The notes under the pieces are model-generated. The model saw only the letters and a list, made by a program, of their open reading frames with translations. It did no database searches and was not told where the DNA came from. Below, one piece after another: positions 12,595-33,788 of a DNA stretch of 64,000 nt. Made by a program: the position numbers and the translations under genes. The stretch's first letter is position 1. Each line of letters begins with the position of its first letter. The stretch comes from Gammaproteobacteria bacterium (GTDB lineage: Bacteria > Pseudomonadota > Gammaproteobacteria > Pseudomonadales > Pseudohongiellaceae). The stretch spans positions 4,964 to 68,963 of the forward strand of contig JAURWS010000044.1 of NCBI GenBank assembly GCA_030654835.1, read 5' to 3'.

Positions 12595-13196
12595 ACAACT
12601 TCATCGAAAGAAATATCGGCTTGATGATTGTACTGACCATCCTCGCCGTGAGCTTCGGCGGCTTCGTCGAGATCGTGCCGCTGATGGCGCAGCGCACGGT
12701 GACCGAGCCCATCGACGGACTCAAACCGCTGACGCCGCTGCAACTGGAGGGACGCGACATTTACATTCGTGAAGGCTGCACTGTCTGCCACTCGCAGATG
12801 ATCCGTCCGCTGCGTGCCGAGGTGGAGCGCTATGGCCACTACTCAGTGGCAGGCGAACTGGTTTACGACCATCCGTTCGTGTTCGGCTCCAAGCGCACCG
12901 GCCCCGATCTCGCCCGCGTGGGCGGACTATACAGTGACGACTGGCACCGTGCGCACCTGTTCGACCCGCGCTCCGTCGTACCCGGTTCCAACATGCCCAC
13001 CTACGCATGGCTGTTCGAGCGGCCTATCAAACTGGAAAACCTGCCGAAGAAACTGGTGGCACTGCAGACGCTCGGCGTGCCCTACACCGACGAGGATATC
13101 GCCAACGCCACCACCGGGCTGGAAAACAGTACCGAGGCCGACGCCGTCATTGCCTACCTGCAACAGCTTGGCACGCTCATTACCGAGAGACGCTGA
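12591..13196 (+). CDS. ccoO: cytochrome c oxidase cbb3-type subunit II (monohaem)
   Basis: TM anchor plus the [11 protein letters not shown] haem-c motif. The start overlaps the ccoN stop. Confidence 0.93.
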
Positions 13197-13215
13197 GCCT
13201 GGAGAGTCACCTGAC

Positions 13216-13401
13216 ATGAACCTGGATATCACTGATTTCCGCAGTATCGCGACCGTGCTGTGCTTCGTCGCCTTCCTGGGCGTCACCTGGTGGGCCTATG
13301 CCCCCGGTCGTCGCCAGCAATTCGACGAAGCAGCCCGCCTGCCCTTTGCAGACGGGTCTGCAAACGAGAATGACCCGAAGGAGAACGCCCATCATGAATA
13401 G
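13216..13401 (+). CDS. ccoQ: cbb3 oxidase subunit IV
   Basis: 61-aa single-TM peptide, MNLDITDFRSIATVLCFVAFLGVTWWAYAPGRR.., lying between ccoO and ccoP. Confidence 0.8.
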   Translation: MNLDITDFRSIATVLCFVAFLGVTWWAYAPGRRQQFDEAARLPFADGSANENDPKENAHHE

Positions 13402-14323
13402 CGCCATCCTCAGTTCCGGCTGGAGCTGGTTTGTGATCATCGGCACCTTCGGCTCGCTGCTGTTTTATTTCCTGCTCCTCTTCCTGAACCGCAAGACCTC
13501 CAATCCGGGCAAGACCACCGGACATGAGTACGACGGCATCGAGGAGTATGACAATCCGCTGCCCGCGTGGTGGTTCTGGGGCTTCCTCATCAGCATCCTG
13601 TTTGCGATCGGCTATCTGATCTACTACCCAGGGCTCGGCAACTTTGCGGGGATCGGGGGCTGGAGCCAAGTCGGTGCACTGGAAGAATCGCAGGAGGCGG
13701 CCGATGCCCGCTACGGGCCGCTGTTCGCCCAGTATGGAGCGGTCCCGATCGACGAGTTGGTTGAAGACGAGACGGCCATGCGCATGGGGCGCCGCCTGTT
13801 CGCCACCAACTGCGCCGTCTGCCACGGTGCCGCTGGCACCGGCAGCGAGGGCTTCCCGAATCTTGCCGACGAGCAGTGGCACTGGGGCGGCGGCGCGGAC
13901 CAGATCAAGACCACCATCGCCAATGGCCGCAACGCCATGATGCCTGCATGGGAAATCCCGCTGCAGGAGGCCGGGGTTAAGGAAGTGACCGAATATGTCC
14001 TGCAACTGGCAGGACGCGAGGTGGATGCCACGTTGGCAACAGCAGGACAGGCGCGTTACGCCATGTTCTGTGCTGCCTGCCACGGACCGGATGGAGGCGG
14101 TCAGCCGATGCTGGGAGCGCCATCACTGAACGACGAGGTGTGGCTCTACGGCAATTCGCGGCTGCGCATCGAAGAGTCGATACGTCACGGCCGTAATGGC
14201 CAGATGCCCACCTTCACCGAACGGCTGGGTGTCGACAAAGTGCACATCCTCAGCGCCTACGTGATGAGTCTGCGACAGGATGACGATGAAGACGAGGATG
14301 AGCCGGACGAGACCGAACAGTGA
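13394..14323 (+). CDS. ccoP: cytochrome c oxidase cbb3-type subunit III (dihaem)
   Basis: TM anchor plus two CxxCH motifs (CAVCHG, CAACHG). It has an unusual acidic C-terminal tail. The start at MNSAILSS overlaps the ccoQ stop. Confidence 0.9.
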   Translation: MNSAILSSGWSWFVIIGTFGSLLFYFLLLFLNRKTSNPGKTTGHEYDGIEEYDNPLPAWWFWGFLISILFAIGYLIYYPGLGNFAGIGGWSQVGALEESQEAADARYGPLFAQYGAVPIDELVEDETAMRMGRRLFATNCAVCHGAAGTGSEGFPNLADEQWHWGGGADQIKTTIANGRNAMMPAWEIPLQEAGVKEVTEYVLQLAGREVDATLATAGQARYAMFCAACHGPDGGGQPMLGAPSLNDEVWLYGNSRLRIEESIRHGRNGQMPTFTERLGVDKVHILSAYVMSLRQDDDEDEDEPDETEQ

Positions 14324-14330
14324 TACCAGC

Positions 14331-15791
14331 ATGAACAGAATTCCTTCTCAGGAGATTATTCCCGAAGACGTCGATTCCCGCGTTTTCAATCTCTATGAGA
14401 GGAAGGAAAAGATCTACATCCGCAAAATGGAAGGTCTGTTCCAGACCGTGCGGCAGTACACAGGCTGGCCTCTTTTACTCGGCTATTTCCTCGTCCCATG
14501 GCTGCATGTCGACGGCCATCAGGCCATTCTCTTTGACCTTCCGGAGCGCAAGTTCCACATCTTCTGGCTGACATTGTGGCCACAGGATTTCGTGCTGCTG
14601 ATGTGGGTGCTGGCCATCGCCGCCTTCGCGCTGTTCTTCGTCACCACACTGTGGGGGCGCGTGTGGTGCGGCTATACCTGCCCGCAGACCATCTGGACGG
14701 CGATCTTCATGTGGGCCGAGCAGATCACCGAGGGCGAGCGTCACCAGCGCATCAATCTCGACAAGACCCCGTCAATCTTTCATCGCGACGGCCGCAACCG
14801 GGCCGGGTGGAACAAGTTCTGGAGGCGCGGCCTCAAACACGGCATGTGGATGGGCTTCGCCCTGCTGACCGGCGTCACCTTCATCGGCTATTTCTATGGC
14901 ATGCGCGAATTGGTTGGAGAAGCGCTGAGCTGGCAGCTGCCGCTCACAGCAGCCTCGTGGAGCGTCTTCTTCACCCTCGCCACCTACATCAACGCCGGAT
15001 GGCTGCGCGAACACGTCTGCATCTACATGTGTCCATATGCACGCTTCCAGTCCGCGATGTTCGATCGTGACACGCTGATCATCTCCTACGATGAGAAACG
15101 CGGGGAAACGCGGGGCGCCCGCAAACGCAACGTCGACTACAAGGGGCTGGGGCTGGGCGACTGCATCGACTGCACACTGTGCGTACAAGTCTGCCCGACC
15201 GGCATCGATATCCGCGCTGGCCTGCAGTACGAATGCATTGGCTGCGCACACTGCATCGACGCCTGCGACTCCATCATGGAAAAGATGGGCTATGCCAAAG
15301 GGCTGATCTCCTATACGACCGAGAACAAACTCGCCGGTGGCAAATGGACGTGGAAGCGGCCCAAGCTGATCGGCTATGGCGTGGCGCTGCTGGTCATGCT
15401 GCTGTTGTTCGCTATCGTATTGCTGACCCGCACGCCGCTGCGCCTGGATGTGTTGCGGGATCGCGGCCAGCTCTTTCAGCAGGTGGAAGGCGGGCGCATC
15501 GAGAACGTTTACACGCTGAAGATCATCAACATGGATCGCGTGGACCACGAGTACCAGCTGAGCGTAAATGGCCTTCCCGATGCCACACTGGTTCCCAACA
15601 CGCCGATCCGCGTGGTAGCCGGTGACATCAACGATGCCTTGGTGCGGGTGCGGGTCGACCCGGACCAGCTGGAGGATTTCGTGACCACTTTCGAATTCGA
15701 GATCGAGGCACTGACGGACGAACAGGATGGCAGCACACTGCGCGCCCGTGCCGAGAGCCGCTACATCGGCCCGCGCCCGTTACCGAACTGA
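14331..15791 (+). CDS. ccoG: cbb3 oxidase accessory 4Fe-4S protein
   Basis: Ferredoxin-type cysteine clusters CIDCTLCVQVCP and CIGCAHCIDAC plus TM segments. Canonical position after ccoP. Confidence 0.9.
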   Translation: MNRIPSQEIIPEDVDSRVFNLYERKEKIYIRKMEGLFQTVRQYTGWPLLLGYFLVPWLHVDGHQAILFDLPERKFHIFWLTLWPQDFVLLMWVLAIAAFALFFVTTLWGRVWCGYTCPQTIWTAIFMWAEQITEGERHQRINLDKTPSIFHRDGRNRAGWNKFWRRGLKHGMWMGFALLTGVTFIGYFYGMRELVGEALSWQLPLTAASWSVFFTLATYINAGWLREHVCIYMCPYARFQSAMFDRDTLIISYDEKRGETRGARKRNVDYKGLGLGDCIDCTLCVQVCPTGIDIRAGLQYECIGCAHCIDACDSIMEKMGYAKGLISYTTENKLAGGKWTWKRPKLIGYGVALLVMLLLFAIVLLTRTPLRLDVLRDRGQLFQQVEGGRIENVYTLKIINMDRVDHEYQLSVNGLPDATLVPNTPIRVVAGDINDALVRVRVDPDQLEDFVTTFEFEIEALTDEQDGSTLRARAESRYIGPRPLPN

Positions 15792-15835
15792 GGCAAGAAC
15801 CAGGAACCATTTTCAGGAACAAGCGGATACGCCCT

Positions 15836-16354
15836 ATGTCACAGACCACAGCCACCGACCCCAGGCCACACTGGTACCAGCACCGCTGGCCCTGGGTCCT
15901 GATGAGCATCCCCTTTGCGGCGGTGCTGTTCGGCATATTCATGGTCGTGACCGCCCTGCGCTATCCGGACGATGTCGTTGCCGACACCTATTATCGCGAC
16001 GGGCAGGGCATCAATCAGTTGCGCGCACTCGACGAGATGGCGCACACCCTCGGCTTGAGTGCCAGCCTGATCAGCTCGGCGGAGGACGGGCGCAGCCAGT
16101 TGCTGCTCGGCGGCGGCGAAGAAGCGGTGCTGCAGCTGTTCCTCTATCACGTCACCGACAGCAGCGCCGACCGTCGCTACCTCTTCTCGCCAAGGGCGCA
16201 GGGTGTCTATGAGGGTATCTACGAGAGCGACGACGGCACGCTGCCCGCCCTGCTGGCGCAACGTGGCGTCTGGTATCTGGAGCTGCGCGGCGAGCAGGAC
16301 AACTGGCGTCTGCGCAAGCGCGTGGAAACCCCCTTCACGAGGCTGGAGTTCTGA
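15836..16354 (+). CDS. ccoH: FixH/CcoH-family assembly protein
   Basis: 172 aa with one N-terminal TM helix (WPWVLMSIPFAAVLFGIFMVV), lying between ccoG and ccoI. Confidence 0.75.
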   Translation: MSQTTATDPRPHWYQHRWPWVLMSIPFAAVLFGIFMVVTALRYPDDVVADTYYRDGQGINQLRALDEMAHTLGLSASLISSAEDGRSQLLLGGGEEAVLQLFLYHVTDSSADRRYLFSPRAQGVYEGIYESDDGTLPALLAQRGVWYLELRGEQDNWRLRKRVETPFTRLEF

Positions 16355-18816
16355 TGCTGGACAAAGTCAAACACTGCTTCTGCTACCACTGCCGCGCGCT
16401 GATGCCGACAGCCACCGCCCTGACGCTTGAGGTGGACGGGCATACTCGCCTGTTGTGCTGCTCGGGCTGCATGGCCGCCGTGCAATTCATCAACGCGTTG
16501 GACCTGCAGTCCTACTACGATTTTCGTGACAAATGCGCGCCCGTCGCCGGACTGACGGCGCACGCCGCTGGCGCCGGACAGACACTTCCGGAGTTGGCCT
16601 TCGCCGATGCCATCGAGGAGTTAGCGGACGGACGCCGGGCATTGCGCCTGCTGATTCCAGACCTGCGCTGCGCCGCCTGTGTCTGGCTGCTGGAACAGGT
16701 GTTGGGCCGCCAGCGTGGCGTCGAGCAGGTGCAGGTCAGCTTCGCCTCGCGGCGCCTGCGGGTTGAGTTCAACCCGGCCGAAGGCACGTCCGTGCCCGCG
16801 ATCGCACATCTAGTGCAACGCCTTGGCTATCAGCCCGAGCCGGATCTGCCCGATGCAGGCAGGCAGAGTTTCGCCAGCCATCAGCGCAACATGCTGATCC
16901 GTCTGGGCGTGGCTGGCATCGGCATGATGCCAGTGATGATGTTCGCGCTCCCGGCGTACCTGGCAGGTGGCGCAGCCGAGGTTGCATCAGCAAGTAACGC
17001 AGCGGCGATGGACCCCCTTAGCGCGGCGCTGTTGCGCTGGGCCAGCCTCGCCCTCAGCACCCCCGTAGTGCTCTACAGCGCCTTTCCATTCCACCGGGGC
17101 GCCTGGTACGCGCTGCGTCATCGCAGCCTGAGCACGGACTTGCCGGTGTCTATTGCCATTCTGGCAGCCTTCCTGCTGAGCGTGGTCAACACTTTGAATC
17201 AGGTGAGCGAGGTATACTTCGACACGGCCTGCATGTTCACGTTTTTCCTGTTGCTGGGTCGCTATGCTGAATTGCAGTCCCGGCGCCACTTCCAAGAGAG
17301 TCAGGATCTCATGTCGAAGCTGCTGCCGCTGACCGTGCGACGGGTGAACAGCAGCAACGAGGAAACCGTCCCGCTGCGGGACGTCGACGTCGGCGACCTG
17401 CTGCGCGTGCTTCCCGGAGAGACGATTCCTGCCGATGGCGTCGTCGTGAGTGGCCGCAGCAGCGTCAGCGACAGCGCCTTTACCGGCGAGCCGCTGCCCA
17501 GCGTCCGGCAGCCCGGCGCACGGGTGCTGGCGGGCGCCACCAATCACGACGGCGAACTCGTGATCCGCGCCCGCACGCAACCGCAGGACTTTGTGCTGGC
17601 ACAGATCAACCGCCTGTTCGAGCAGGCCTCCCAATACCGTCCACACTGGTCCCGCCTCGCGGACCGGGCAGCGTCCTGGTTCATCGGTGCCGTGCTTGTA
17701 CTCGCAGCTGCGGCCGGCATTTTCTGGGAACTGCGCGGTGCGGACAACGCGCTGATCATCGCCCTGACCGTGCTGGTGGTGGCTTGCCCTTGTGCGCTGT
17801 CGCTGGCGACCCCAGTCGCCAGCACCGTTGCCACCACCACACTGCGTCGACGTGGTGTGGTCATTCGCAACGGAGCCTTCCTTGAGCGGGCGGCGGCGAC
17901 CACCGCCGTGGTCTTTGACAAGACCGGCACGCTCACCGAGGCCCAGCTCCACATCGACAGGATCGTGCCGCTGCATACGCTGGACACGCAGGCCTGCCTC
18001 GCCATCGCGACCGCGCTGGAGCGCCACAGTCATCACCCGATCGCCCGCGCCTTTGCCTGTGACACGGCGCTGACTGCCAGTGCCGTAGTGACGGTGCCAG
18101 GCCAAGGCGTCGAGGGCGAGATAGCAGGCGTTCACTACCGCCTCGGCATAGTCGGCTTCGCATGGCCAAATATCGGCAGCCGCAGCACCACTCTCTCACC
18201 GCCCGAGCAGGATGATGGCCTGTGGGTACTCCTGGCCGCCGAGACACCACTGGCTTGGTTCCGGCTGCAGGATGTCCTGCGCGACGACGCCGCGCAAACC
18301 GTAGACGCCCTGCGGAAACAAGGCATCACCACGGCCATTTTCAGCGGCGACTCGTCAGTGGCGGGTCGACACCTGGCCGAGACACTGCGTGTGGACCAGT
18401 TGCGCACCGGCCTGACTCCTGAACAGAAGATTGCCGCCGTGCGGGCGCTGAACGCCGGGACACCTGTCGGCGGACAGCGGGTCATGATGATCGGGGACGG
18501 TGTCAATGACGCGGGGGCCATGGCGGCCGCAGACACCTCCATCGCCATCTCCCCGCGCGACGTGCTGGTGCAGAACAGTGCCGATGCGACCTTGCTCAAC
18601 CCGAACCTCACCCTGGTGCCGGACGTTCTGCGCTTCGCCAGACGCACGCGCCGCATCATCCGCCAGAACATCGGCTGGTCGCTGGCCTACAATCTGAGCG
18701 TGATTCCCGTGGCGCTGCTCGGCCTGCTGCCTCCGTGGCTCGCCGCGCTCGGCATGAGCCTGTCATCGCTGCTGGTGGTCATGAACGCCTGGCGTCTGCG
18801 TCGGATGGAGGACTGA
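16354..18816 (+). CDS. ccoI: copper-translocating P-type ATPase (FixI/CcoI)
   Basis: CPC TM motif, DKTGTLT phosphorylation site and GDGVNDA hinge. 820 aa. Confidence 0.92.
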   Translation: MLDKVKHCFCYHCRALMPTATALTLEVDGHTRLLCCSGCMAAVQFINALDLQSYYDFRDKCAPVAGLTAHAAGAGQTLPELAFADAIEELADGRRALRLLIPDLRCAACVWLLEQVLGRQRGVEQVQVSFASRRLRVEFNPAEGTSVPAIAHLVQRLGYQPEPDLPDAGRQSFASHQRNMLIRLGVAGIGMMPVMMFALPAYLAGGAAEVASASNAAAMDPLSAALLRWASLALSTPVVLYSAFPFHRGAWYALRHRSLSTDLPVSIAILAAFLLSVVNTLNQVSEVYFDTACMFTFFLLLGRYAELQSRRHFQESQDLMSKLLPLTVRRVNSSNEETVPLRDVDVGDLLRVLPGETIPADGVVVSGRSSVSDSAFTGEPLPSVRQPGARVLAGATNHDGELVIRARTQPQDFVLAQINRLFEQASQYRPHWSRLADRAASWFIGAVLVLAAAAGIFWELRGADNALIIALTVLVVACPCALSLATPVASTVATTTLRRRGVVIRNGAFLERAAATTAVVFDKTGTLTEAQLHIDRIVPLHTLDTQACLAIATALERHSHHPIARAFACDTALTASAVVTVPGQGVEGEIAGVHYRLGIVGFAWPNIGSRSTTLSPPEQDDGLWVLLAAETPLAWFRLQDVLRDDAAQTVDALRKQGITTAIFSGDSSVAGRHLAETLRVDQLRTGLTPEQKIAAVRALNAGTPVGGQRVMMIGDGVNDAGAMAAADTSIAISPRDVLVQNSADATLLNPNLTLVPDVLRFARRTRRIIRQNIGWSLAYNLSVIPVALLGLLPPWLAALGMSLSSLLVVMNAWRLRRMED

Positions 18817-18819
18817 GCC

Positions 18820-19068
18820 ATGGAGACCTTCCTCATATTGATCCCCGTCACCCTCGCGCTGGTCGCGCTGTCACTGTGGGCCTTCGTGTGGTCCGCCCGC
18901 AACGGACAGTTTGAAGATATTGATCGGCAGGCCTGGTCCATCCTATTCGACAATACCGAGGAGGAGCAAAAACAGGAGTTGCAAAAGGAGAGGCATGAGG
19001 AAGCGCGCCAAGACATTGAAGCAGGGGCGCCACTGGATGAGGCCGAGCGCGACGGCGGGATGCACTGA
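18820..19068 (+). CDS. ccoS: cbb3 oxidase maturation protein
   Basis: 82-aa protein, METFLILIPVTLALVALSLWAFVWSARNGQFED.., typical of FixS/CcoS. Confidence 0.85.
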   Translation: METFLILIPVTLALVALSLWAFVWSARNGQFEDIDRQAWSILFDNTEEEQKQELQKERHEEARQDIEAGAPLDEAERDGGMH

Positions 19069-19739
19069 TGGACTTGCTGGCCGCCTTCCTGCTCGGGCTG
19101 TTCAGTGCCCCGCATTGCCTGGCCATGTGCGGAGGCGTGGCCTCGGCGCTGCTGCTGGGCAGCGACGCGGCAGATGAGCGAGCGGCGCGGCGCCCGACAC
19201 CCATCGTCAACGCCTTATGGTTCGGCACCGGCAAGTTACTTGGCTACGGGGCGCTCGGGGCGCTGGCCGGCCTGACTGGAGCCGTGCTGAGTTCGTCGGG
19301 CACGGCTGCGGGGGCAGCGCTGCACTTACTCGCGGGGCTGCTGATGATCGGACTCGGTCTCTACATGACCGGCTGGTGGCTGGGCATTCGCCGCCTCGAA
19401 GCTCTGGGCGGGCGCCTCTGGCAGCCCGTTCTGCGCCTGCTGCGCGGGTTGCAACTGGGCAGCACCGGCAACAAACTCGCTGCCGGCCTGTTATGGGGCT
19501 TTCTCCCCTGCGGCATCGTTTACAGCATGCTGGCGCTTGCTCTCAGTGCAGGCAGCGCGGCGGCCGGCGCCGCCATCATGCTCAGCTTCGGCCTCGGTAC
19601 CCTGCCCTTCGTGCTGGGCAGCGGCGGCGTTCTGCTGGCAGCTGTGCCTCTGCTGCGTCAACAGCGCTGGCGCACGGTGGCGGGGATAGGGCTGATATTG
19701 TATGGCGCCTATGGCATTGCAATGACGCTAAAGCCATGA
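19068..19739 (+). CDS. TauE/SafE-like (DsbD_2-type) membrane protein
   Basis: Polytopic protein with an N-terminal HCLAMCGG motif. Found after ccoS, as in other gammaproteobacteria. Confidence 0.7.
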   Translation: MDLLAAFLLGLFSAPHCLAMCGGVASALLLGSDAADERAARRPTPIVNALWFGTGKLLGYGALGALAGLTGAVLSSSGTAAGAALHLLAGLLMIGLGLYMTGWWLGIRRLEALGGRLWQPVLRLLRGLQLGSTGNKLAAGLLWGFLPCGIVYSMLALALSAGSAAAGAAIMLSFGLGTLPFVLGSGGVLLAAVPLLRQQRWRTVAGIGLILYGAYGIAMTLKP

Positions 19740-24601: not shown

Positions 24602-26599
24602 ATGAGCGCGAGCATCCCCTCCTGCCAGCACTGGCGCAGCAAACGTGACAGCGACGACATTCTCTGGCTGTTCCTCGATCGTCAGGGAGAGTCGGTCAAT
24701 GCACTCTCCCGCGCAGTGCTGCAGGAATTCGACAGCCTCATCGCCTATGCCACACAACACCTGCCGCGCGGCGTTGCGATTCTCTCTGGCAAATCCAGCG
24801 GCTTCATCCTGGGCGCCGATATTCGTGAATTTGGTAACCTCACCGATCCCGTCGAGGTCACCCAGGCGATTTCCCAAGTGCACGACATGTTCACGCGCCT
24901 CGAACGCCTGTCCTGCCCGACAGTTGCGGCGTTCGATGGCTACTGTCTGGGGGGTGGTCTGGAGCTGGCACTCAGTTGCAGCTACCGGATTGCGCGCGAT
25001 GTACCTGCTACCAAGATCGGATTCCCCGAGATCCAGCTCGGCATCTTCCCGGGCTTTGGTGGCTCTGCGCGCTCGGTGAGCCAGATCGGCGGGCTGAAGG
25101 CGATGGAACTGATGCTTTCCGCTCGCCAGGTCAATGCCCGGCAGGCGCGGGCGCTGGGACTGGTGGACGAGGTCATCGGACGCCACGAAGAACTGTATTG
25201 GGCCGCCCGCCGCGCCATTCTGACCAAGCGCCGCAGCCGTGGGCCGAGCCTGCTGGGTAGACTCAGCAATCTGGCACCGGCCCGCAGGCTGCTGGCTCAG
25301 CAGATGCGCAAGCAGACAGCACTGCGCGCACGCGAAGCTCATTATCCGGCGCCTTATCGATTGATCGACACCTGGGAGCGGTACGGTGGTGATCGCGCCG
25401 TCATGATGAAGGAGGAGGCACGGGCCGTCGGACGGCTGATGGTGACGCCACAGGCGGCGGGACTGCGACACGTCTTCGGCCTGATGGATCGCCTGAAGAA
25501 AGAAGGCAAGCAAAGCGAATTTCGCGCCCGCCGTGTGCATGTCGTTGGCGCTGGCGTGATGGGCGGGGATATTGCCGCCTGGTGTGTGCTGCAGGGGCTG
25601 GAGGTGAGCCTGCAGGACCGCGAGATGAAGTACATCGAGCCTGCACTCAAGCGCGCAGAGACCCTGTTCCGCAAGAAACGGCTCGATCCCGCCGCTGTCA
25701 GAGCAGCGCTGGACAGACTGCGCCCGGACGTCAACGGTGACCTGGTGTCACAGGCCGACGTGGTGATTGAGGTCATCGTCGAGCGCCTCGACGCCAAGCA
25801 GGCGCTACTGCGCAGCCTTGAGCCGCGCCTGAAGGCAGGCGCGGTGCTGGCGACCAATACCTCCTCGATTCCGCTGGAGGAACTCGCGACGGCTCTGCAG
25901 CAGCCGGAGCGCCTGATCGGACTGCACTTCTTCAACCCGGTCGCGAAGATGCCACTGGTGGAAGTAGTCAGGGGCACCAACAGTGACGAGGAAATGCTGC
26001 GCAAAGGGGCGGCATTCTGCGGCCAGATCAACCGTTATCCGCTGCCGGTGAAAAGCAGCCCAGGCTTTCTCGTCAATCGCATACTCGCCCCCTACATGCT
26101 GGAGGCACTGATCATTCATCAGGAAGGCATACCTATAGAAGCCATCGATGCCGCCGCCGAAGAGTTCGGCATGCCCATGGGGCCGGTCGAACTGGCCGAC
26201 ACCGTGGGTCTGGACGTCTGCCTCATGGTCATGAACACACTGGGGCAGCGTGGCGATCAAGCTGATCGCAACCCATTGATTGCAAAGGCCACAGAACAGA
26301 TTCGCGAGCTTGCAGATAAAGGTAGCCTGGGACGCAAGACCGGTCAGGGCTTTTACCGCTGGGAGCAGGACAAAGCCAGCAAACATCGGGAAAAGGCCGC
26401 CGGGCAGGACTTGCAAGCTATCGGCGCACGGCTGATCAAGGCCTACACGGACGAATGCGTGAAAGCGCTGGCCGATGGCATCGTCACCGACGCCGATCTT
26501 CTGGATGCGGGAATGGTCTTCGGCACGGGCTTCGCGCCATTTCGCGGTGGCCCCATGCACTACCTCAATGTTTTGGCGGGAGAACATCAGCATGACTGA
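24602..26599 (+). CDS. bifunctional enoyl-CoA hydratase / 3-hydroxyacyl-CoA dehydrogenase (FadB/FadJ-like)
   Basis: N-terminal crotonase fold (..GFILGADIREF..CLGGGLELAL..) followed by an NAD-binding VHVVGAGVMGGDIA dehydrogenase domain. Confidence 0.88.
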   Translation: MSASIPSCQHWRSKRDSDDILWLFLDRQGESVNALSRAVLQEFDSLIAYATQHLPRGVAILSGKSSGFILGADIREFGNLTDPVEVTQAISQVHDMFTRLERLSCPTVAAFDGYCLGGGLELALSCSYRIARDVPATKIGFPEIQLGIFPGFGGSARSVSQIGGLKAMELMLSARQVNARQARALGLVDEVIGRHEELYWAARRAILTKRRSRGPSLLGRLSNLAPARRLLAQQMRKQTALRAREAHYPAPYRLIDTWERYGGDRAVMMKEEARAVGRLMVTPQAAGLRHVFGLMDRLKKEGKQSEFRARRVHVVGAGVMGGDIAAWCVLQGLEVSLQDREMKYIEPALKRAETLFRKKRLDPAAVRAALDRLRPDVNGDLVSQADVVIEVIVERLDAKQALLRSLEPRLKAGAVLATNTSSIPLEELATALQQPERLIGLHFFNPVAKMPLVEVVRGTNSDEEMLRKGAAFCGQINRYPLPVKSSPGFLVNRILAPYMLEALIIHQEGIPIEAIDAAAEEFGMPMGPVELADTVGLDVCLMVMNTLGQRGDQADRNPLIAKATEQIRELADKGSLGRKTGQGFYRWEQDKASKHREKAAGQDLQAIGARLIKAYTDECVKALADGIVTDADLLDAGMVFGTGFAPFRGGPMHYLNVLAGEHQHD

Positions 26600-27869
26600 A
26601 TTGAAACGGGTAGCCATCATCGGAGGCACGCGCATTCCGTTCTGTCGTTCCAATACGGCATACGCGAACCTTAGCAACCTCGACATGTTGGCGGATACGC
26701 TGCAGAACCTGGTCGACCGCTATGGGCTCACCGGCCGCAAGATCGACGAGGTGATTGCTGGCGCTGTGACCACACATTCCCGTGACTGGAACCTGGCACG
26801 CGAGGCGGTACTCAGCACCAGCCTGTCACCCGCCACGCCGGGCACCACACTGCAGATGGCCTGCGGCACCTCCTTGCAGGCCGCCATGCTCTGCGCCGGA
26901 CGGATTGCCAGCGGGCAGATCGATTGTGCAATTGCCGCCGGTTCGGACACGACCAGTGATGTCCCTCTGGTGTTCCAGCGGCGCTTCGCACAGCGCCTGG
27001 TAAAAGCCGGACAGGCGCGCGATGTCATGGGGCGTTTGCGGGCCTTCAAAGGCTTCCGCCTGGGAGAGCTCAGTCCACAGGCTCCCGCGAATGGAGAGCC
27101 GCGCACGCGCCTGTCCATGGGCGAGCATTGCGAGTTGATGGCGAAACAGTGGGGAATCACCCGTGCTGAGCAGGATCGGTTGGCACTGGAGAGTCACCAG
27201 AAAGCCGCTCAGGCCTATCAGGAAGGTTTCTTTGACGATCTCGTGAGCCCCTATAACGGTGTTGCACGCGACAACAATCTGCGCGCCGACAGCAGCCTCG
27301 AAAAACTCTCCACCCTCAAGACCGTCTTCGACCGCACCGCCAATGGCACGCTGACAGCAGGCAACAGCACACCCCTGACCGATGGCGCATCCGCCGTGTT
27401 CCTTGCCAGTGAGGAGTATGCACTGACCAATGGCCTGCAGGTCCAGGCCTGGCTGACCCATGCCCGCACGTCCGCCGTGGACTACGTGGGCGGTGAAGGC
27501 TTGCTGATGGCGCCCACTGTGGCGGTGAGTGAACTGTTGAAAGCGTCCGGACTGAGCCTCCAGGATTTTGATTTCTACGAAATTCATGAGGCGTTCGCCG
27601 CACAGGTGCTCTGCACGCTGAAGGCGTGGGAGAGTGAAGAATTCTGCCGCAACACGCTCAGGCTGAGCGGCCCGTTGGGTGCCATTGACCGCAATCGCCT
27701 GAATGTCAGAGGCAGTTCGCTCGCGCTTGGCCACCCCTTTGCCGCCACCGGAGCGCGCATTCTCGCCACCCTGTCCAAGCTTCTGCAGAATGAAAATTCG
27801 GGCCGAGGGTTGATATCCATATGTACTGCAGGGGGAATGGGAGCGGCAGCGATCCTCGAAAAGGCCTGA
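26592..27869 (+). CDS. acetyl-CoA C-acyltransferase (thiolase, FadA/FadI-like)
   Basis: MTELKRVAIIGGTRIPFCRS.., active-site contexts ..LQMACGTSLQA.. and ..SICTAGGMG.. The start overlaps the upstream stop (ATGACTGA). Confidence 0.88.
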   Translation: MTELKRVAIIGGTRIPFCRSNTAYANLSNLDMLADTLQNLVDRYGLTGRKIDEVIAGAVTTHSRDWNLAREAVLSTSLSPATPGTTLQMACGTSLQAAMLCAGRIASGQIDCAIAAGSDTTSDVPLVFQRRFAQRLVKAGQARDVMGRLRAFKGFRLGELSPQAPANGEPRTRLSMGEHCELMAKQWGITRAEQDRLALESHQKAAQAYQEGFFDDLVSPYNGVARDNNLRADSSLEKLSTLKTVFDRTANGTLTAGNSTPLTDGASAVFLASEEYALTNGLQVQAWLTHARTSAVDYVGGEGLLMAPTVAVSELLKASGLSLQDFDFYEIHEAFAAQVLCTLKAWESEEFCRNTLRLSGPLGAIDRNRLNVRGSSLALGHPFAATGARILATLSKLLQNENSGRGLISICTAGGMGAAAILEKA

Positions 27870-28235
27870 GAATCGCTTCTACCAGACAGAAATGTCCGGC
27901 AGCTTGATCTAAGTCATATAATGATCTAACAGCCTTGATGCCGCGCCAGTCTTTAATGAATAATCGCGCCACTATTCAGGAACGGCTTTAGCAAGGCACC
28001 GCCATGGAATGGTGACAAGAAGATAAATGCAGGACCCGCACGAGAGGAGAGAAACGAGCACACCTGCCTGGAAAGGAACCACGTTCCGCCGGTCATTGAG
28101 ATTGGCGCCAGGGGAGGGGGCAGAAAAGCAATAGAAAATCAGGATGCTTGCGAGAGCGCTCAAGTCCTGATTCAATTGCGCACGTGACGCTCGTTTCAAC
28201 AAGATAACGCAATGGTACTCTGGGAGAGAAAGTCG

Positions 28236-29195
28236 ATGAAAATGAACAATCGGACAGTTGCAGGCCTTACACTGGGATTTTTCCTGGTGGCGCTGGCCAG
28301 TATAATGCCCGCCCACGCCCAAACATCCCCGCTGGGAGACAAGAACCAGCGTCTGCTGGGTCTGACCACCCCTACCGGCCTGACGGTAATCCCGATATTC
28401 GAGGGAGCGTACGAAAATGAAGACGGCTCAATTTCTTATTCTTTCGGATACTTGAACCGTAACACCAGTGAAGTCATAGAAACTGCGTTCGGTGAAGGCA
28501 ACTACGTTGAGCCTGCACAGTTCGATGGCGTACAGCCCACGACCTTCCAGACCGGCCGCCACACTGGCGTTTTCACAATTACCGTCCCTGCTTCAATGCG
28601 CGACGGCGAAGTCTGGTGGCACATCAAATCCGGAGACAACGATATCCTCAAGGTACCGGGTCGCCGCGGCAAGCTGGGTTACACCCTCGACTTGAAGCCA
28701 CGTCCTGCGGGCTCCGTTGCTCCAATCGTCTGGGCAACAGAAGGCGGACCTAAAGGCACAGATCCAATGGGCCTGCACGTCGAAGAAGTCCTGAGTGTGA
28801 AAGCCGGTGCCCCAGTGACGCTGTCTGTCCACACCGAAGACGTGTCAGTGCGTGACATGACCGACGACCGTAACGCCAAAGGCATCCCCGTTCGCGTGTC
28901 CTGGAGCAAGTACCAGGGCCCGGTAGGTGCAGAAGTGGCCTTCGAGCGTCACCCCTCCTCTGAAGCTCCAGCAGAAGTGAGCGAAGCCGCTGCCCGTCGT
29001 GGCGCCCAGCCAGCTGGTCCAGACGAGACTAAAATTGCCAGCGGCAAAGGCACTGCAAGTGTCATCGCCACCTTCGCACAACCTGGTGACTACGTTATCC
29101 GTACCATGGTAGATAACTGGGACGCCACTGACAGCACAGAAGCTGACCAGTGCTGCTGGAGCAACATGTACCAGAAGATCACTGTAACCCCGTAA
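28236..29195 (+). CDS. exported hypothetical protein (P1)
   Basis: GGAGAG lies 8 nt upstream of the ATG. Signal peptide MKMNNRTVAGLTLGFFLVALASIMPAHAQ. The body looks beta-rich and the C-terminus contains ..DQCCWSNMYQKITVTP. Confidence 0.7.
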   Translation: MKMNNRTVAGLTLGFFLVALASIMPAHAQTSPLGDKNQRLLGLTTPTGLTVIPIFEGAYENEDGSISYSFGYLNRNTSEVIETAFGEGNYVEPAQFDGVQPTTFQTGRHTGVFTITVPASMRDGEVWWHIKSGDNDILKVPGRRGKLGYTLDLKPRPAGSVAPIVWATEGGPKGTDPMGLHVEEVLSVKAGAPVTLSVHTEDVSVRDMTDDRNAKGIPVRVSWSKYQGPVGAEVAFERHPSSEAPAEVSEAAARRGAQPAGPDETKIASGKGTASVIATFAQPGDYVIRTMVDNWDATDSTEADQCCWSNMYQKITVTP

Positions 29196-29239: not shown

Positions 29240-29281
29240 GAAGGCCCGCCAGCCCCGTGAATACGGGGGTGGCGGGCCTTC
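29240..29281 (+). terminator. 19-bp GC-rich hairpin between P1 and P2 (attenuator or processing-type, no U-tract)
   Basis: gaaggcccgccagccccgt / gaat loop / acgggggtggcgggccttc, with one mismatch. It is followed by gtcacaatt, which is not T-rich. Confidence 0.5.
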
Positions 29282-29379: not shown

Positions 29380-30765
29380 ATGAGAACAATGCAGTGTTGG
29401 AAACAGAAACAGCGCACAGGGAAAGCCATTCTTGGCTTGACAGTCCTTGCTGCTCTGGGGCTCACCGCCCAGGCTCAGGCTCAGTCCGGCGCTCTGTCAA
29501 TTGACGCGGGTCAAGTGACATATGCCGATCACGTTGCACAGATCATCACTGATAACTGTGTAGTCTGCCACCGCGAAGGCGGTGTTGGCCCAATGCAACT
29601 CACCAACTATGAGCAAGTCCGTCCTTGGGCACCGCTCATTCAGTACCGAGTTGAAAACAGGGAAATGCCCCCTTATGCATACGACCACGGCATCGGTATT
29701 CAGGAGCTGCAAGGCGACTGGAGACTTGAGCAGAGCGAGATCGACACTATCGTTGCATGGGTTCAGCAAGGCGCACCGGAAGGTGATTGGGGCGATCGCA
29801 GCCACCCAGTAGCCAACCTGCCAAACCCAGACGAGTGGACTTTCGCCGCTCAATTTGGCGCACCAAGTCTGGTCCTGGACTCCACCCCGATTGACGTGCC
29901 AGCTCTGGGTAACGACATGTGGCACCGTCCATACGTCATGACTGGCCTGACCACTGATCGCTGCATCAAGGCGATTCAAGTGAAGCCGGCCGGCAATGCC
30001 AAGGCTGTTGTACACCATGCCAACTCAAACGTGGAAGTCCTGAATGAGGAAGGCGAGTACGAAGACTATGGTATGTTCACCGAGTACGCGATGGGCAAAT
30101 GGGGCGAGATAGCGCCGGAAGGCGTATGCCGCACTCTGCCAGCCAATGCGCGCATTCGTTGGGACATCCACCTCTTCCCAGGTGGTGTAGGCGCAACTGC
30201 TCCGGGCACCGTCATTGAAGACAACGTTGTTGAAATCGGCGTATGGCTGCACCCTGAAGGCTATGAAGAAGTGGCCAAATACAAGCAGGATCTGAAGTTG
30301 TACAGACTCAACATGGGCGAGCTGATTGTTCCTCCGAATGGCACTGCCATGACTCAGGGCTTCCACTCGTTCGACCACCCTGTGCGTATCGACAGCTTCC
30401 AGCCACACGGCCACCTGCGTATGCGTCAAGCGTCTCTGGAGATTTTCTACCCAGCGACTGGACGTACTGAGCAGATCAGCCAAGTGTCAAACTGGAGTGC
30501 TACTTGGCACCACAGCCACCTGTACGAAACTGATGTCGCTCCACTGCTCCCAACTGGTGCAGTTCTGGTTATCAAGCAGTGGTACGACAACACTGCCAAT
30601 AACCCGAACAACCCTGATCCAGATTTCTGGGTAGTGGAAGGCAGCCGTACAGCTGACGAAATGACTCACGCCTGGATCGCGGTGACTCACCTCGACCAAG
30701 CAGGCTTCGACGAACTCGTTGCCCAGCGTGAAGCAGCCAAGCAGCGCTCAGTTGCTGGTCAGTAA
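29380..30765 (+). CDS. exported haem-c (CxxCH) domain fused to a PHM/DBH-like putative copper monooxygenase fold (P2)
   Basis: AGGAGA SD. Signal peptide ..LTAQAQAQS. CVVCHREGG..REMPP module. Then VVHHA, WDIHLFP, QPHGHLRM and TADEMTH in the order and approximate spacing I recall for the PHM copper ligands. Confidence 0.7.
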   Translation: MRTMQCWKQKQRTGKAILGLTVLAALGLTAQAQAQSGALSIDAGQVTYADHVAQIITDNCVVCHREGGVGPMQLTNYEQVRPWAPLIQYRVENREMPPYAYDHGIGIQELQGDWRLEQSEIDTIVAWVQQGAPEGDWGDRSHPVANLPNPDEWTFAAQFGAPSLVLDSTPIDVPALGNDMWHRPYVMTGLTTDRCIKAIQVKPAGNAKAVVHHANSNVEVLNEEGEYEDYGMFTEYAMGKWGEIAPEGVCRTLPANARIRWDIHLFPGGVGATAPGTVIEDNVVEIGVWLHPEGYEEVAKYKQDLKLYRLNMGELIVPPNGTAMTQGFHSFDHPVRIDSFQPHGHLRMRQASLEIFYPATGRTEQISQVSNWSATWHHSHLYETDVAPLLPTGAVLVIKQWYDNTANNPNNPDPDFWVVEGSRTADEMTHAWIAVTHLDQAGFDELVAQREAAKQRSVAGQ

Positions 30766-30911: not shown

Positions 30912-32651
30912 TCAGTGCGTATCTCTGTGATAGGTCAGGTAGCCAGTAAACATCTCATCCTCACTCGTCACCCCTGACGCGATCTCTTCCATCGGGTCCG
31001 GGTTGAAAGGATTGGACACCGAGTTGTCGAATGCGCCAGAGACTACCACGCGACTGCCTGCCGGCACCTTCACTGGGTGCTCCAGCACATAGTGCGGCTG
31101 CCACGCGTAGTTATAGGCTGGAATGCTGAGAATATCTTCCGTCGTCCCATCCGGGCGTTCGACAGAGAATTTCACATTCTTGCCGCGTTCATTCATGCGC
31201 GCTCTGACGCCAGTGATGATAACGTCTTCATTGAAGACATGCTCGGCCTGCATCGGAATGTCATTCTGATCGGCAGGCAAAACAAACTGTGCAGAAACAG
31301 TCTGCACAAGTCTCTCCTGCAGCTCACCGTCAGCATTGTCTGCGAGGTATAGACCTATTTCGGTGATGCTGTTCAGCTCCGCGCCCATTCCCACATACTG
31401 GAACTGCATCGACAGCTTGTGCCCCTTCGGAATAAACAATCCGGAGCCTTCGGCAAACTCTGCGACAATCGCGCGCCCAGGTGAATAGCTTTCGAGAAAG
31501 CGCCGCGTAGTATGAGTACTGGTGCGCTCAGCACCCCAGAAGTCCTCTCCAGGAGCCGTCACATAGGCGACCATCTGATGCAGCGCACCATTGCCCGTGG
31601 GCTGATATTGAACGGCGCGCACCCAGGTGTCCTCGGTGAATGGCAGCTCGAGGTCCAGATAAATGTCCTCAAGAATTCCGTTGACAGGCACCTTCTGCAG
31701 CGGTGTGCTGATGATCAGATCGGGCTCACCGATGAGCCACGGCTGCCGCTCCTCGAACTTGAGTTCGGCCAGCGGGTCTGTCGGGCTATCGCCGCGAGGG
31801 CCGCCCGCGTTGATCCAATGCACAACCGTTTGAATATCGGCGGTGGACAGATAGCGAGCGGTCGTCGAATGGCCTACATCAGGGTCAATCTGAGCTGGCG
31901 GCATCCGCTTGTTCAGTATCACTTCCTTGATCATCGGGGACCAGCCCAGCAATGACACATGCCGATCCATCGCGAAGGGGCCTGCGCCCCACTGGCGGTG
32001 ACACTCCACACAATTTTCAATAATGATAGGGGCGACTTCGGTGGCATAGTCCGGCACTTTCTCCTTGTGCGCGTCGCGTACCGGGAAACTCAAGGCGCAT
32101 CCATCGCCAGTGCCTGTCTTCACGGTGTCCCTTATTGGCCCAGCCAACAATCCGGCCAGCGTCTGGTCGAGCTCGCTGCTGACGGCACCGCTGTAAAACA
32201 GCGACATCCGGTCGGGGTTCAGAACCCGCACCTCGCCGGCAACAGCCAGCCCCAGTGCTTCCGATATCAACTGCCCCGAGTCCTGCAAAACCGGCAAGCC
32301 AAGGTCGAGCGCAGCCAGTTCGGCACGGCCACGACCCTGAGAGTCGATCAAGAGAAACTCTATCCCCTGCTCCGCGTAGCGTGACTGCAAGGCTTTGTAG
32401 TCCTCGACCATGGAGCCCATGTTCTGACAGGTCGCGGCATAAGACATCAACACGACAGCCTGCCTGTGCTGATAACGGCTCAACTGATGAAATTTGCCAT
32501 CACTGTCCATCAATGCAAAATCACCGGTGCGATCCAGTGCCGCATTGGCACCGTTCGCCGCCAGACCTAGCATGACGCTGAAACTGAGAAGCTTGACTCT
32601 GGTGTTCACAATATACTGCCTCGAAAAAGTGGTGATGCGACGACTCTTCAA
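30912..32651 (-). CDS. exported thioredoxin-like + haem-c (CxxCH) + degenerate PHM-like protein (P3, paralog of P2)
   Basis: The signal peptide is ..LLSFSVMLGLAANGANA. A redoxin-like segment follows (..AVVLMSYAATCQNM..). The haem module CVECHRQWG..KRMPP is also present. The C-terminal half aligns to P2 by eye. The start may be the GTG at 32609. Confidence 0.7.
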   Translation of the reverse strand: MKSRRITTFSRQYIVNTRVKLLSFSVMLGLAANGANAALDRTGDFALMDSDGKFHQLSRYQHRQAVVLMSYAATCQNMGSMVEDYKALQSRYAEQGIEFLLIDSQGRGRAELAALDLGLPVLQDSGQLISEALGLAVAGEVRVLNPDRMSLFYSGAVSSELDQTLAGLLAGPIRDTVKTGTGDGCALSFPVRDAHKEKVPDYATEVAPIIIENCVECHRQWGAGPFAMDRHVSLLGWSPMIKEVILNKRMPPAQIDPDVGHSTTARYLSTADIQTVVHWINAGGPRGDSPTDPLAELKFEERQPWLIGEPDLIISTPLQKVPVNGILEDIYLDLELPFTEDTWVRAVQYQPTGNGALHQMVAYVTAPGEDFWGAERTSTHTTRRFLESYSPGRAIVAEFAEGSGLFIPKGHKLSMQFQYVGMGAELNSITEIGLYLADNADGELQERLVQTVSAQFVLPADQNDIPMQAEHVFNEDVIITGVRARMNERGKNVKFSVERPDGTTEDILSIPAYNYAWQPHYVLEHPVKVPAGSRVVVSGAFDNSVSNPFNPDPMEEIASGVTSEDEMFTGYLTYHRDTH

Positions 32652-32654
32652 GAC

Positions 32655-33788
32655 TTACGGCATCGGGTAGTTGCTGACATGGCCTTGTTCTGTGGCAACC
32701 CTTGAACGGTTGCGTTCAGACTGCTCCATGCCGCCCAGTGCCGGACCGCCCTGATTGAAGATGCCACCACGCAATACGAACTGGAGATAGCTCATTTCGT
32801 TATCCATGTACCCTTCCTTGTCGATGAATTTCTCCAGGATCTCCTCAATGGCAGCACCACGATCCGGTACGGCTGGATGAGCAAGAACGTCGCCGATGAC
32901 AACCTTCAGGGCCGATATGTTATCAAGCACATAAGCGGCGCCAGGATGGAAGCTGTAGAGGTTGGGCGCAATCGCCGGCATGGTAGGAATGTCTGTCGGA
33001 AGAGAAATCATGCTGCCATGGGCACGGGCGATCTTGTCGATGTAAATATCGGCTACGGTCTGCATGCCCGCCTCCAAAGCTGCATCACTTGCGGCCGTCA
33101 TGGTGATTTCGAGCATTGCCAACTGCATCCACTGCGACGCCCAGGTCATGCCGCTCAGCTGCGGGAAACCGACCCTGAAGGCGTAGGCGTAGGGGTGTTC
33201 GGAGAGCAGGTCACCGGATTTTGGTGAAGCTGCCACCGACAGCTCGTCGTTGCTCAAATACTCGGTCAGCGCCTCATCAACTGCCGTGTGTTTGTCGTAG
33301 ATAGAGTTGTCGAGATAGATCTCCAGCAGGGTGTCTGCGAACTCACGACCTCTGGTCAATACTGCGATTGCCTTTGGGGGAATGCTGCCGTTGGCCTCCA
33401 GAAGCCGTTGCACTTCCTCTTGACTGAATTCTGTCCGCACCATGGCTTGCAGACCTGGCGTCGCACGACTTTCGAAGAGTCGGTGCGGCCCAAGCATCGC
33501 CAAGTGGTTTGCCGAAGTGTGGTAATGCGAGTACTGAGCTTCCTGCAGATCTACTATGGCATCGATCAAAAGCCCCTTGCCGATCTCGGCCTCGGGCGAT
33601 TGATTGGTCAGTGCCACCTCGTCGAAGACTGCCGCCTGCAGCACTTCTGCGACGTTCAGATAATTCGCCAGCTCAGGAAAGCGGCTTTGCAGAATCGACT
33701 CACTGGACTGAGCCTGCAGAGAGGCAGGCAGGACTAACCCGGCACATACAACAACCGGTAGTATTTTTTGCAATGTTTGTCTGAACAT
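32655..33788 (-). CDS. exported hypothetical protein (P4)
   Basis: Signal peptide MFRQTLQKILPVVVCAGLVLPASLQAQS. The composition looks largely helical. Its stop lies 3 nt before the P3 start, so the two are probably an operon. Confidence 0.65.
   Translation of the reverse strand: MFRQTLQKILPVVVCAGLVLPASLQAQSSESILQSRFPELANYLNVAEVLQAAVFDEVALTNQSPEAEIGKGLLIDAIVDLQEAQYSHYHTSANHLAMLGPHRLFESRATPGLQAMVRTEFSQEEVQRLLEANGSIPPKAIAVLTRGREFADTLLEIYLDNSIYDKHTAVDEALTEYLSNDELSVAASPKSGDLLSEHPYAYAFRVGFPQLSGMTWASQWMQLAMLEITMTAASDAALEAGMQTVADIYIDKIARAHGSMISLPTDIPTMPAIAPNLYSFHPGAAYVLDNISALKVVIGDVLAHPAVPDRGAAIEEILEKFIDKEGYMDNEMSYLQFVLRGGIFNQGGPALGGMEQSERNRSRVATEQGHVSNYPMP

Follow-up and report, generated by a model that had tools for sequence, protein, structure and literature searches.

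The copper monooxygenases PHM (peptidylglycine alpha-hydroxylating monooxygenase), DBH (dopamine beta-monooxygenase) and TBH (tyramine beta-monooxygenase) have been treated as eukaryotic, ascorbate-dependent enzymes. In 2022, PHM was described as the eukaryotic branch of its clan, the double-jelly-roll clan CL0612 of Pfam, which has PNGase F as its bacterial branch (PMC8812541), and a review from 2025 names only PHM, DBM, TBM and the plant BURP proteins (PMC12164859). Full-text literature searches, whose reach excludes subscription-only literature, came up with no account of an enzyme like PHM or DBH in bacteria, or of its fusion to cytochrome c, in agreement with an earlier reading of the DNA made from its letters only (the sequence-only reading), which knew of no characterised bacterial example. 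The DNA in question is a stretch of 64,000 nucleotides (the window, taken at its full length) from contig JAURWS010000044.1 of a Gammaproteobacteria bacterium of the Pseudohongiellaceae (GenBank assembly GCA_030654835.1). It encodes a protein, P2, which, judged by sequence comparison and a predicted model, very probably combines, in one exported chain, a c-haem motif with a PHM/DBH core in which both copper sites, CuH and CuM, are complete. The P2 family would represent the missing bacterial branch of these enzymes.

The copper core and the haem domain of P2

The kinship of the copper core surfaced solely through a family profile and a fold search. The profile was built by aligning 26 full-length, diverse representatives of clusters at 50% identity; compared with the PDB, it matched human DBH (4ZEL) with an E value of 4.1e-5 and rat PHM (1PHM/1OPM) with an E value of 2.3e-3. 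The AlphaFold2 model of P2, built on a 116-sequence alignment, has a mean predicted local distance difference test (pLDDT) score of 85.8 and a predicted template modelling score of 0.80. When it was searched against the PDB with Foldseek, ranks 1-31 were all DBH or PHM structures (E 1.4e-13 to 7.8e-9), aligned over about 293 columns that cover both domains, with a template modelling (TM) score of about 0.64 normalised to PHM, and rank 32 was an unrelated viral double-jelly-roll capsid protein (E 8e-6). Profile and fold search thus both bear out the PHM/DBH fold that the sequence-only reading had proposed. With the single sequence as query, a phmmer search of the PDB gave cytochrome c6 alone (E 0.97), and the NCBIfam scan returned weak cytochrome c matches alone and left the copper core unrecognised.

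The profile also places the candidate copper ligands of P2 on those of the crystal structures. Counted along the alignment, its vvHH pair (H212/H213 in P2) falls on H262/H263 of DBH and H107/H108 of PHM, the first His of elHlH (H264) on H333 of DBH and H172 of PHM, and the qpHmH pair (H343/H345) on H412/H414 of DBH and the HTH pair of PHM, H242/H244. The DEM of the profile (M428 in P2) is aligned to the DEMC of PHM (M314) in a separate, non-significant stretch of 0.9 bits in which DBH is not covered, so that five of the six copper ligands are aligned with significance and the Met weakly. The CuM ligands of PHM are H242, H244 and M314. The numbering of the DBH ligands follows PMC4846438 and that of the CuH ligands of PHM follows PMC6123673. 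The sequence-only reading had assigned CuH to an HH pair plus a His and CuM to an HxH motif plus a Met, an assignment that stands for the five His and, with less force, for the Met. The proposed clustering of these residues in P2 rests on their residue-by-residue equivalence to crystallographic ligands. The CuM-type domain further contains an invariant loop, WYDNTxxNPNNPDPD, that is specific to the family.

Conservation of the cofactor residues was followed in the 116-sequence alignment, which includes 31 close and 60 distant relatives of P2 (34-55% identity), 91 sampled relatives in all. The ten cofactor residues (C60, C63, H64, M96, H212, H213, H264, H343, H345 and M428) are kept in 31/31 close relatives, one of which is a fragment that lacks the haem-site region, and in 60/60 distant ones. 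All six copper-ligand positions are therefore retained in 91/91 relatives, down to 34% identity, as the sequence-only reading had expected of a true copper enzyme of this type. Among the 26 representatives, which share 23-62% identity, C60, C63, H64, M96-P-P and H212 are invariant, and conservation is at least 90% at H213, H264, H343, H345, D426 and M428. Q341, R347, E354, W376, D403, N404 and W432 are further invariant core residues of the family. These comparisons of sequences show that the P2 family is under strong purifying selection.

In front of the copper core stands a domain whose sequence and model fit a small class-I-like cytochrome c with His/Met ligation. Its CVVCH motif (C60-V-V-C63-H64) is the sole CxxCH in P2, and M96, in an invariant MPP, is the candidate for the distal Met; together with an export signal recognised by inspection, these are the marks of a class I c-type cytochrome. 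The domain scores 21.9 bits against the Pfam model Cytochrom_C (PF00034, cut-off 21.3), Cytochrome_CBB3 and Haem_bd are the other Pfam matches in P2, and PF13442 is matched by 16 of the 26 diverse relatives. In the AlphaFold2 model, three helices (residues 48-59, 77-92 and 118-129) are grouped around CVVCH. Since no family member with an intact copper core lacks CxxCH or the MPP Met, the haem appears to be an obligatory and fixed part of the enzyme and not an occasional fusion. The sequence-only reading had likened the domain to the planctomycete-type cytochrome (PSCyt1), a label that had to be given up, since the Pfam scan yielded generic cytochrome c models only and no PSCyt1 match at E up to 1. 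The sole hint of a planctomycete link is a 27-residue match of the family profile to the haem region of hydrazine synthase alpha in the PDB (E 2.7e-3). None of the three Pfam families to which that reading had pointed, PSCyt1, Cu2_monooxygen and Cu2_monoox_C, was recovered in P2.

The open reading frame (ORF) of P2 is genuine. Its translation gives the 461 residues from MRTMQ that had been described before, with every listed haem and copper residue in its place, and inspection agrees on the Sec signal. The ATG at 29380 is favoured as the start over the GTG at 29257, with which the longest mechanical ORF begins, because a GAGGAG Shine-Dalgarno sequence lies 7 nt 5' of the ATG and the full-length homologues (446-463 residues) align from M1 onwards. 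Residues 1-34, MRTMQCWKQKQRTGKAILGLTVLAALGLTAQAQA, look like a Sec signal in their sequence, with a basic n-region, a hydrophobic core and AxA motifs, all by inspection; the pLDDT of the model is below 50 at residues 1-12 and 30-42. Beyond the haem pair, the cysteines of P2 are C195, C250 and one in the signal peptide.

The P2 family is large and spread over several bacterial phyla, in marine and soil settings. A word-indexed search with P2 returned 3,422 relatives, a HMMER search with its non-haem part (residues 140-461) returned at least 2,746 representative clusters at 50% identity (E <1e-3), and at least 594 family matches were found in GTDB species genomes, often with two or more copies per genome. 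In the source databases these proteins are annotated as 'cytochrome c', 'mono/diheme cytochrome c family protein', 'redoxin domain-containing protein' or 'hypothetical protein'. Gene neighbourhoods were compared in 81 related loci, 79 from GTDB species genomes, all of them metagenome-assembled, and two from metagenome contigs. The gammaproteobacterial loci among the 79 belong to Pseudohongiella, Pseudomonadales and SAR86-labelled genomes, and the others to Gemmatimonadota (Longimicrobiales, Gemmatimonadales), Acidobacteriota (Vicinamibacterales, Terriglobia), Acidimicrobiia and a metagenome-assembled Nitrosomonas. The nearest locus, from a metagenome-assembled pseudomonadotal genome (L042, 96% identity), has the same arrangement of P2, the partner gene and the gene for a 377-residue protein that are described below.

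The partner gene and other neighbours of P2

Coordinates of P2, its predicted parts and the genes around it are collected in the table.

Table. Features of the window discussed in the text, with positions counted from its first nucleotide
Feature	Position	Strand	Basis
P2, 461-residue exported protein, probably a PHM/DBH-like dicopper core fused behind a cytochrome c domain	29380..30765 (stop codon included)	+	Translation, homologues, profile, fold
P2, predicted Sec signal peptide, residues 1-34, with AQA/AQA cleavage motifs	29380..29481	+	Sequence inspection
P2, class-I-like c-type cytochrome domain, residues 45-135 (codons: CVVCH 29557-29571; M96-P-P 29665-29673)	29512..29784	+	Pfam PF00034, conserved C60/C63/H64/M96, three model helices
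P2, CuH-type beta-sandwich domain, about residues 160-300 (ligand codons: H212-H213 30013-30018; H264 30169-30171)	29857..30279	+	DBH/PHM alignment, Foldseek, conservation
P2, CuM-type beta-sandwich domain, about residues 301-440 (ligand codons: H343-G-H345 30406-30414; D426-E-M428 30655-30663)	30280..30699	+	DBH/PHM alignment, Foldseek, conservation
Partner, 327-residue exported two-domain beta protein	28212..29195	+	Locus conservation, fusions
GC-rich hairpin between partner stop and P2 start	29240..29281	+	Free energy -44.4 kcal/mol, z -8.4 against shuffles
Paralogue, 579 residues: AhpC/TSA (redoxin), cytochrome c (CVECH...MPP) and PHM-like core with degenerate CuM	30912..32651	-	Identity, Pfam
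377-residue exported protein, unassigned family	32655..33788	-	Recurrence beside P2, partner or paralogue
FadB-like and FadA-like beta-oxidation genes	24602-27869	+	Directly upstream of partner and P2, same strand
TonB-dependent receptor ORF, 1,142 residues	22112-25540	-	Mechanical ORF list
ccoN, ccoP (cbb3 oxidase; small ORFs lie between the two), ccoG/FixG, CcoI-like copper P-type ATPase (16354-18816), DsbD_2 protein	11038-19739	+	

The most constant neighbour of P2 is the partner gene. In 62 of the 81 loci a homologue of the partner, a protein of roughly 320 residues, is encoded on the strand of the P2 homologue and within 3.5 kb of it, and in 55 of the 81 the gap between the two same-strand genes is shorter than 600 nt, with the partner on either side. 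Further, the partner module occurs fused to P2-like proteins, at the N-terminus in P0255 and P0417, at the C-terminus in P0285 and P0268, and split around the enzyme in P0290. This fusion in both orders is strong 'Rosetta-stone' evidence that the partner and P2 form a physical complex. The N-terminal domain of the partner family carries the signature FEGWxxNxDGSxxxxFGYxNRN, and its PKD-like C-terminal domain, weakly matched by Pfam PKD in 25 of 55 members, ends near-invariantly in DNFxxxDSxxxxQCCW(T/S)N. Across the 55 sequences C314, C315 and N318 never vary, and W316 and D307 reach at least 90% conservation; the alignment contains no conserved His/Met metal site, and the family profile found no sequence homologue in the PDB. 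The copy in the window reads DNWxxxDSxxxxQCCWSN at residues 307-318, with two vicinal Cys followed by Trp. The CCW motif could form a vicinal disulfide, or serve as a redox element or cofactor site, and we take the partner to be a subunit that helps to bind or present the substrate. Between the partner stop and the P2 start there is a gap of 184 nt, inside which the hairpin lies without a T-run after it; a role as terminator or attenuator is conceivable, as is one as an mRNA stabiliser that sets the partner-to-P2 ratio.

Downstream of P2, the cluster continues with the convergent paralogue, the gene of the 377-residue protein and a Na/H exchanger gene. The paralogue is 26% identical to P2 (E 2e-30) and is matched in Pfam by AhpC-TSA and, below threshold, by Cu2_monoox_C (E 4.5e-4, 20.2 bits against a cut-off of 23). 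Its family has lost the CuM His pair in 25/25 members sampled (H343 replaced by Arg or Lys, H345 by Asn or Ser), with the Met and most of the CuH His retained; in the copy of the window, the equivalents of H213 and H264 are both Gln. The remoter AhpC/TSA-fused relatives P0373 and P0387 retain all ligands. The paralogue may have derived from the enzyme as a thiol-linked, non-canonical form and probably belongs to the same periplasmic module as P2. A pseudoenzyme reading may apply to it; for P2 itself that reading was rejected, all ligands being kept in the 91 sampled relatives. The family of the 377-residue protein is present in 15 loci, the window included, usually 0.4-2.7 kb from the P2 homologue. 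Scans of Pfam, NCBIfam and the PDB gave no match to this family, whose members share the invariant C-terminal motif LRGGI(F/Y)NQGGPAxG...SERNRSR, and the protein may be a third component of the system. By inspection, all four clustered products (partner, P2, paralogue and 377-residue protein) carry signal peptides.

Upstream, the cluster is flanked by fadB/fadA and the TonB-dependent receptor gene. The listed ORFs of the receptor and fadB overlap by about 940 nt, so that the start of one or the other is probably over-extended. The block of cbb3 and CcoI genes lies about 10-18 kb upstream of P2.

In the related loci, other genes recur within 10 kb of the P2 homologue. Soluble dehydrogenases dependent on pyrroloquinoline quinone (PQQ) were found in 19 loci, six-bladed NHL propellers resembling the lyase PAL in 15, an unassigned family of about 331 residues in 9 and TonB-dependent receptors in 8. 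The PQQ dehydrogenases are of the glucose/quinate/alcohol type (for example L029:11502-13472, L002:6033-7835 and about 20 others), and several directly adjoin P2 homologues; they could be electron donors to the haem, or oxidisers of the hydroxylated product. The profile made from the propellers (L001:3176-4375, L002:1769-2869, L051:8259-9395, L076:17218-18342 and 12 others) aligns with the PAL domain of PAM (3FVZ) in a single colinear match of full length (E 9.6e-54), and with the NHL proteins TRIM and Thin only repeat by repeat. Their alignment keeps two His, two Asp and two Arg without exception (WPHG and PH...ADRxNxR), residues that are candidate counterparts of the Zn and Arg residues of PAL. 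As a set, these neighbours are suggestive of the uptake of an organic substrate and of further oxidation or cleavage of a hydroxylated product. A further group, neighbourhood cluster 3, was discarded as spurious because it consists of Arg-rich antisense ORFs.

What P2 might do

The preferred reading, to which a probability of about 60% is given on analogy with PHM and DBH, is that P2 acts as a dicopper monooxygenase of the periplasm that draws its electrons from its own haem and not from ascorbate. Three redox centres would be involved: a class-I-type c haem, bound by thioethers to C60 and C63 with H64 and M96 as axial ligands, a CuH site of three His, and a CuM site of two His and a Met. The haem would accept single electrons from the periplasmic respiratory pool, delivered by a soluble cytochrome c or a quinoprotein dehydrogenase, and would pass them to CuH and from there to CuM. 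At CuM, activated O2 would abstract hydrogen from a small organic substrate, at an activated C-H bond that is benzylic or lies alpha to N or O, and the carbon there would become hydroxylated. The fused haem and the periplasmic location argue for a reductant other than ascorbate, whose place the haem would take, and P2 is expected to act with the adjacent exported beta-sandwich partner. As to the substrate, the residue two before HxH is Q341, a Gln in 90/91 relatives as in the QLHTH of DBH, whereas PHM has R240 at this position, the Arg that binds the C-terminal carboxylate of its substrate. Because Gln replaces this Arg, a peptidyl-glycine substrate is not assumed.

Several observations weigh against a haem-fed monooxygenase. 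P2 has no match to Cu2_monooxygen or Cu2_monoox_C (PF01082/PF03712) in Pfam at E up to 1, the disulfide staples of PHM are missing from it, and the DEMC of PHM has become DEMT. The 64-kb window contains no gene for a PQQ dehydrogenase or a PAL-like protein, its fadB/fadA, TonB receptor and Na/H exchanger genes point to no substrate, and the AlphaFold2 model of the partner, made from a five-sequence alignment, has a pLDDT of 48.6, too low for a fold search. In favour of the copper core, Cu2_monoox_C is matched below threshold in 7 of the 26 diverse family members (best E 1.7e-5) and Cu2_monooxygen in one; P2 itself reaches no Pfam threshold for the copper core and is therefore regarded as a remote branch outside the current Pfam models.

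The haem electrons that reach CuM by way of CuH could also serve to reduce a small inorganic molecule such as O2, nitrite or NO, with P2 either as an analogue of the cytochrome-c-tethered copper nitrite reductases (CuNiRs) or as a periplasmic terminal oxidase that scavenges O2 or reactive oxygen species. The layout of one c haem and two coppers recalls the tethered CuNiRs in its logic, and the PHM entries listed by Foldseek include structures with nitrite, azide, CO or O2 bound (3mlk, 3mib, 3mll, 3mlj and 1sdw). The window offers no evident pathway for an organic substrate and places P2 about 10 kb from the genes for cbb3 oxidase and the CcoI copper-ATPase; this proximity, however, is not seen in distant relatives and is probably coincidental. 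An inorganic substrate is considered unlikely, since P2 has retained the His2Met CuM site and the two-domain PHM architecture of known hydroxylases, and the beta-sandwich partner, PQQ dehydrogenases, PAL-like proteins and TonB receptors that accompany its relatives suit organic substrates better.

The close pairing of the two genes and the fusions of their products would also fit if P2 were a maturase that oxidises or cross-links the Cys-Cys-Trp region of the partner, for example by hydroxylating the Trp, in the manner of BURP proteins and with the modified partner as end product. The conservation of the CCW region in a partner that has no conserved His/Met metal site fits this proposal, and the BURP cyclases, which have a PHM-like copper pair, find their target peptide within or beside their own chain (PMC12164859). 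Against it, the C-terminally fused proteins P0285 and P0268 keep every copper and haem ligand and yet have lost the CCW motif, a finding that disfavours the partner as a mere modification substrate. In addition, a one-shot enzyme is not normally kept fused one-to-one to its substrate in both orders, and a cross-link between adjacent Cys and Trp is sterically unlikely, so that a maturase role is quite improbable.

That P2 is a non-catalytic copper-handling or redox-sensing protein (a buffer, chaperone or electron shuttle) on a PHM scaffold is very unlikely: the paralogue family has persisted despite the loss of its CuM His pair, from which the scaffold is seen to survive without a canonical site, and no activity is known for any family member, but in P2 both sites are complete in 91/91 relatives and the invariant residues that accompany the ligands are those of a typical enzyme active site.

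If P2 is a haem-fed monooxygenase, a wider and more tentative proposal, rather doubtful as it stands, can be made. P2 and its CCW partner, possibly with the 377-residue protein, might form an unrecognised and widespread class of periplasmic copper monooxygenases that is wired to the respiratory chain by a built-in c haem and hydroxylates or dealkylates dissolved organic compounds outside the cytoplasm in oligotrophic marine Gammaproteobacteria and in soil Acidobacteriota and Gemmatimonadota. In some lineages the product might go to PQQ dehydrogenases or PAL-like lyases, and the system would be a bacterial counterpart, possibly a relative, of the PHM-PAL amidation of animals; the loose linkage to PAL-like propellers bears on the origin of that peptide-amidation machinery. 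A bacterial branch with an intact active site and a haem as entry point would provide a soluble prokaryotic model enzyme, in which the haem could be used to drive and time the supply of electrons to CuH, and the transfer from CuH to CuM, long studied in PHM, might be followed optically. Since thousands of clusters of this family are annotated as 'cytochrome c' or 'hypothetical protein', a sizeable, unassigned periplasmic oxidation capacity in the environmental turnover of carbon or nitrogen may exist.

P2 and the described copper enzymes

Two known systems resemble P2 in mechanism only, their folds being unrelated. In cellobiose dehydrogenase (CDH), whose cytochrome domain works with lytic polysaccharide monooxygenase (LPMO), and in the cytochrome-c-tethered CuNiRs, a haem feeds single electrons to a copper site and makes a small-molecule reductant needless. 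The haem of CDH is of the b type in a DOMON-like fold, LPMO is a histidine-brace mono-copper enzyme, and CuNiR is a cupredoxin trimer. PNGase F, from the clan of PHM, is a metal-free amidase; a PNGase F-like or carbohydrate-binding reading of P2 was rejected, as PNGase F is not in the top 50 Foldseek matches and both copper sites are conserved. The BURP proteins are plant proteins with no cytochrome domain. Their copper peptide cyclases have PHM-like coordination and separation of the copper sites and act on a protein or peptide partner (PMC12164859). The likeness of P2 to them is one of description only; no BURP match turned up in the searches, none of which was aimed at BURP.

The closest described systems remain PHM and DBH. 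With PHM, which is the catalytic core within PAM (1PHM, 1OPM, 1SDW), P2 shares the core of two beta-sandwiches (Foldseek E about 1e-12, TM score 0.64, about 293 columns) and the HH...H and HxH ligands, aligned residue for residue, with the DEM around the Met in the weak stretch; the ligand spacings are comparable, with 51, 79 and 83 residues in P2 and 64, 70 and 70 in PHM. Unlike PHM, it is bacterial and periplasmic, has a c-type cytochrome domain in front and a sequence identity of only 10-13%, contains none of the disulfides of PHM, carries a Gln for Arg240 and the extra WYDNTxxNPNNPDPD loop, and is accompanied by a separate conserved partner. The lyase PAL, which in PAM is fused, is represented among the relatives of P2 by PAL-like genes that are loosely linked in some loci only. 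DBH (4ZEL) is both the top sequence match (E 4.1e-5) and the top fold match (E 1.4e-13) and shares with P2 the Q-x-H-x-H motif; P2 differs from DBH and tyramine beta-monooxygenase in having no dimerisation domain and in an electron donor that is presumed not to be ascorbate. Both DBH and P2 carry an accessory N-terminal domain before the core, but that of DBH is a DOMON beta-sandwich without haem ligands (PMC4846438), whereas that of P2 is a predicted helical cytochrome with the motif for covalent haem.

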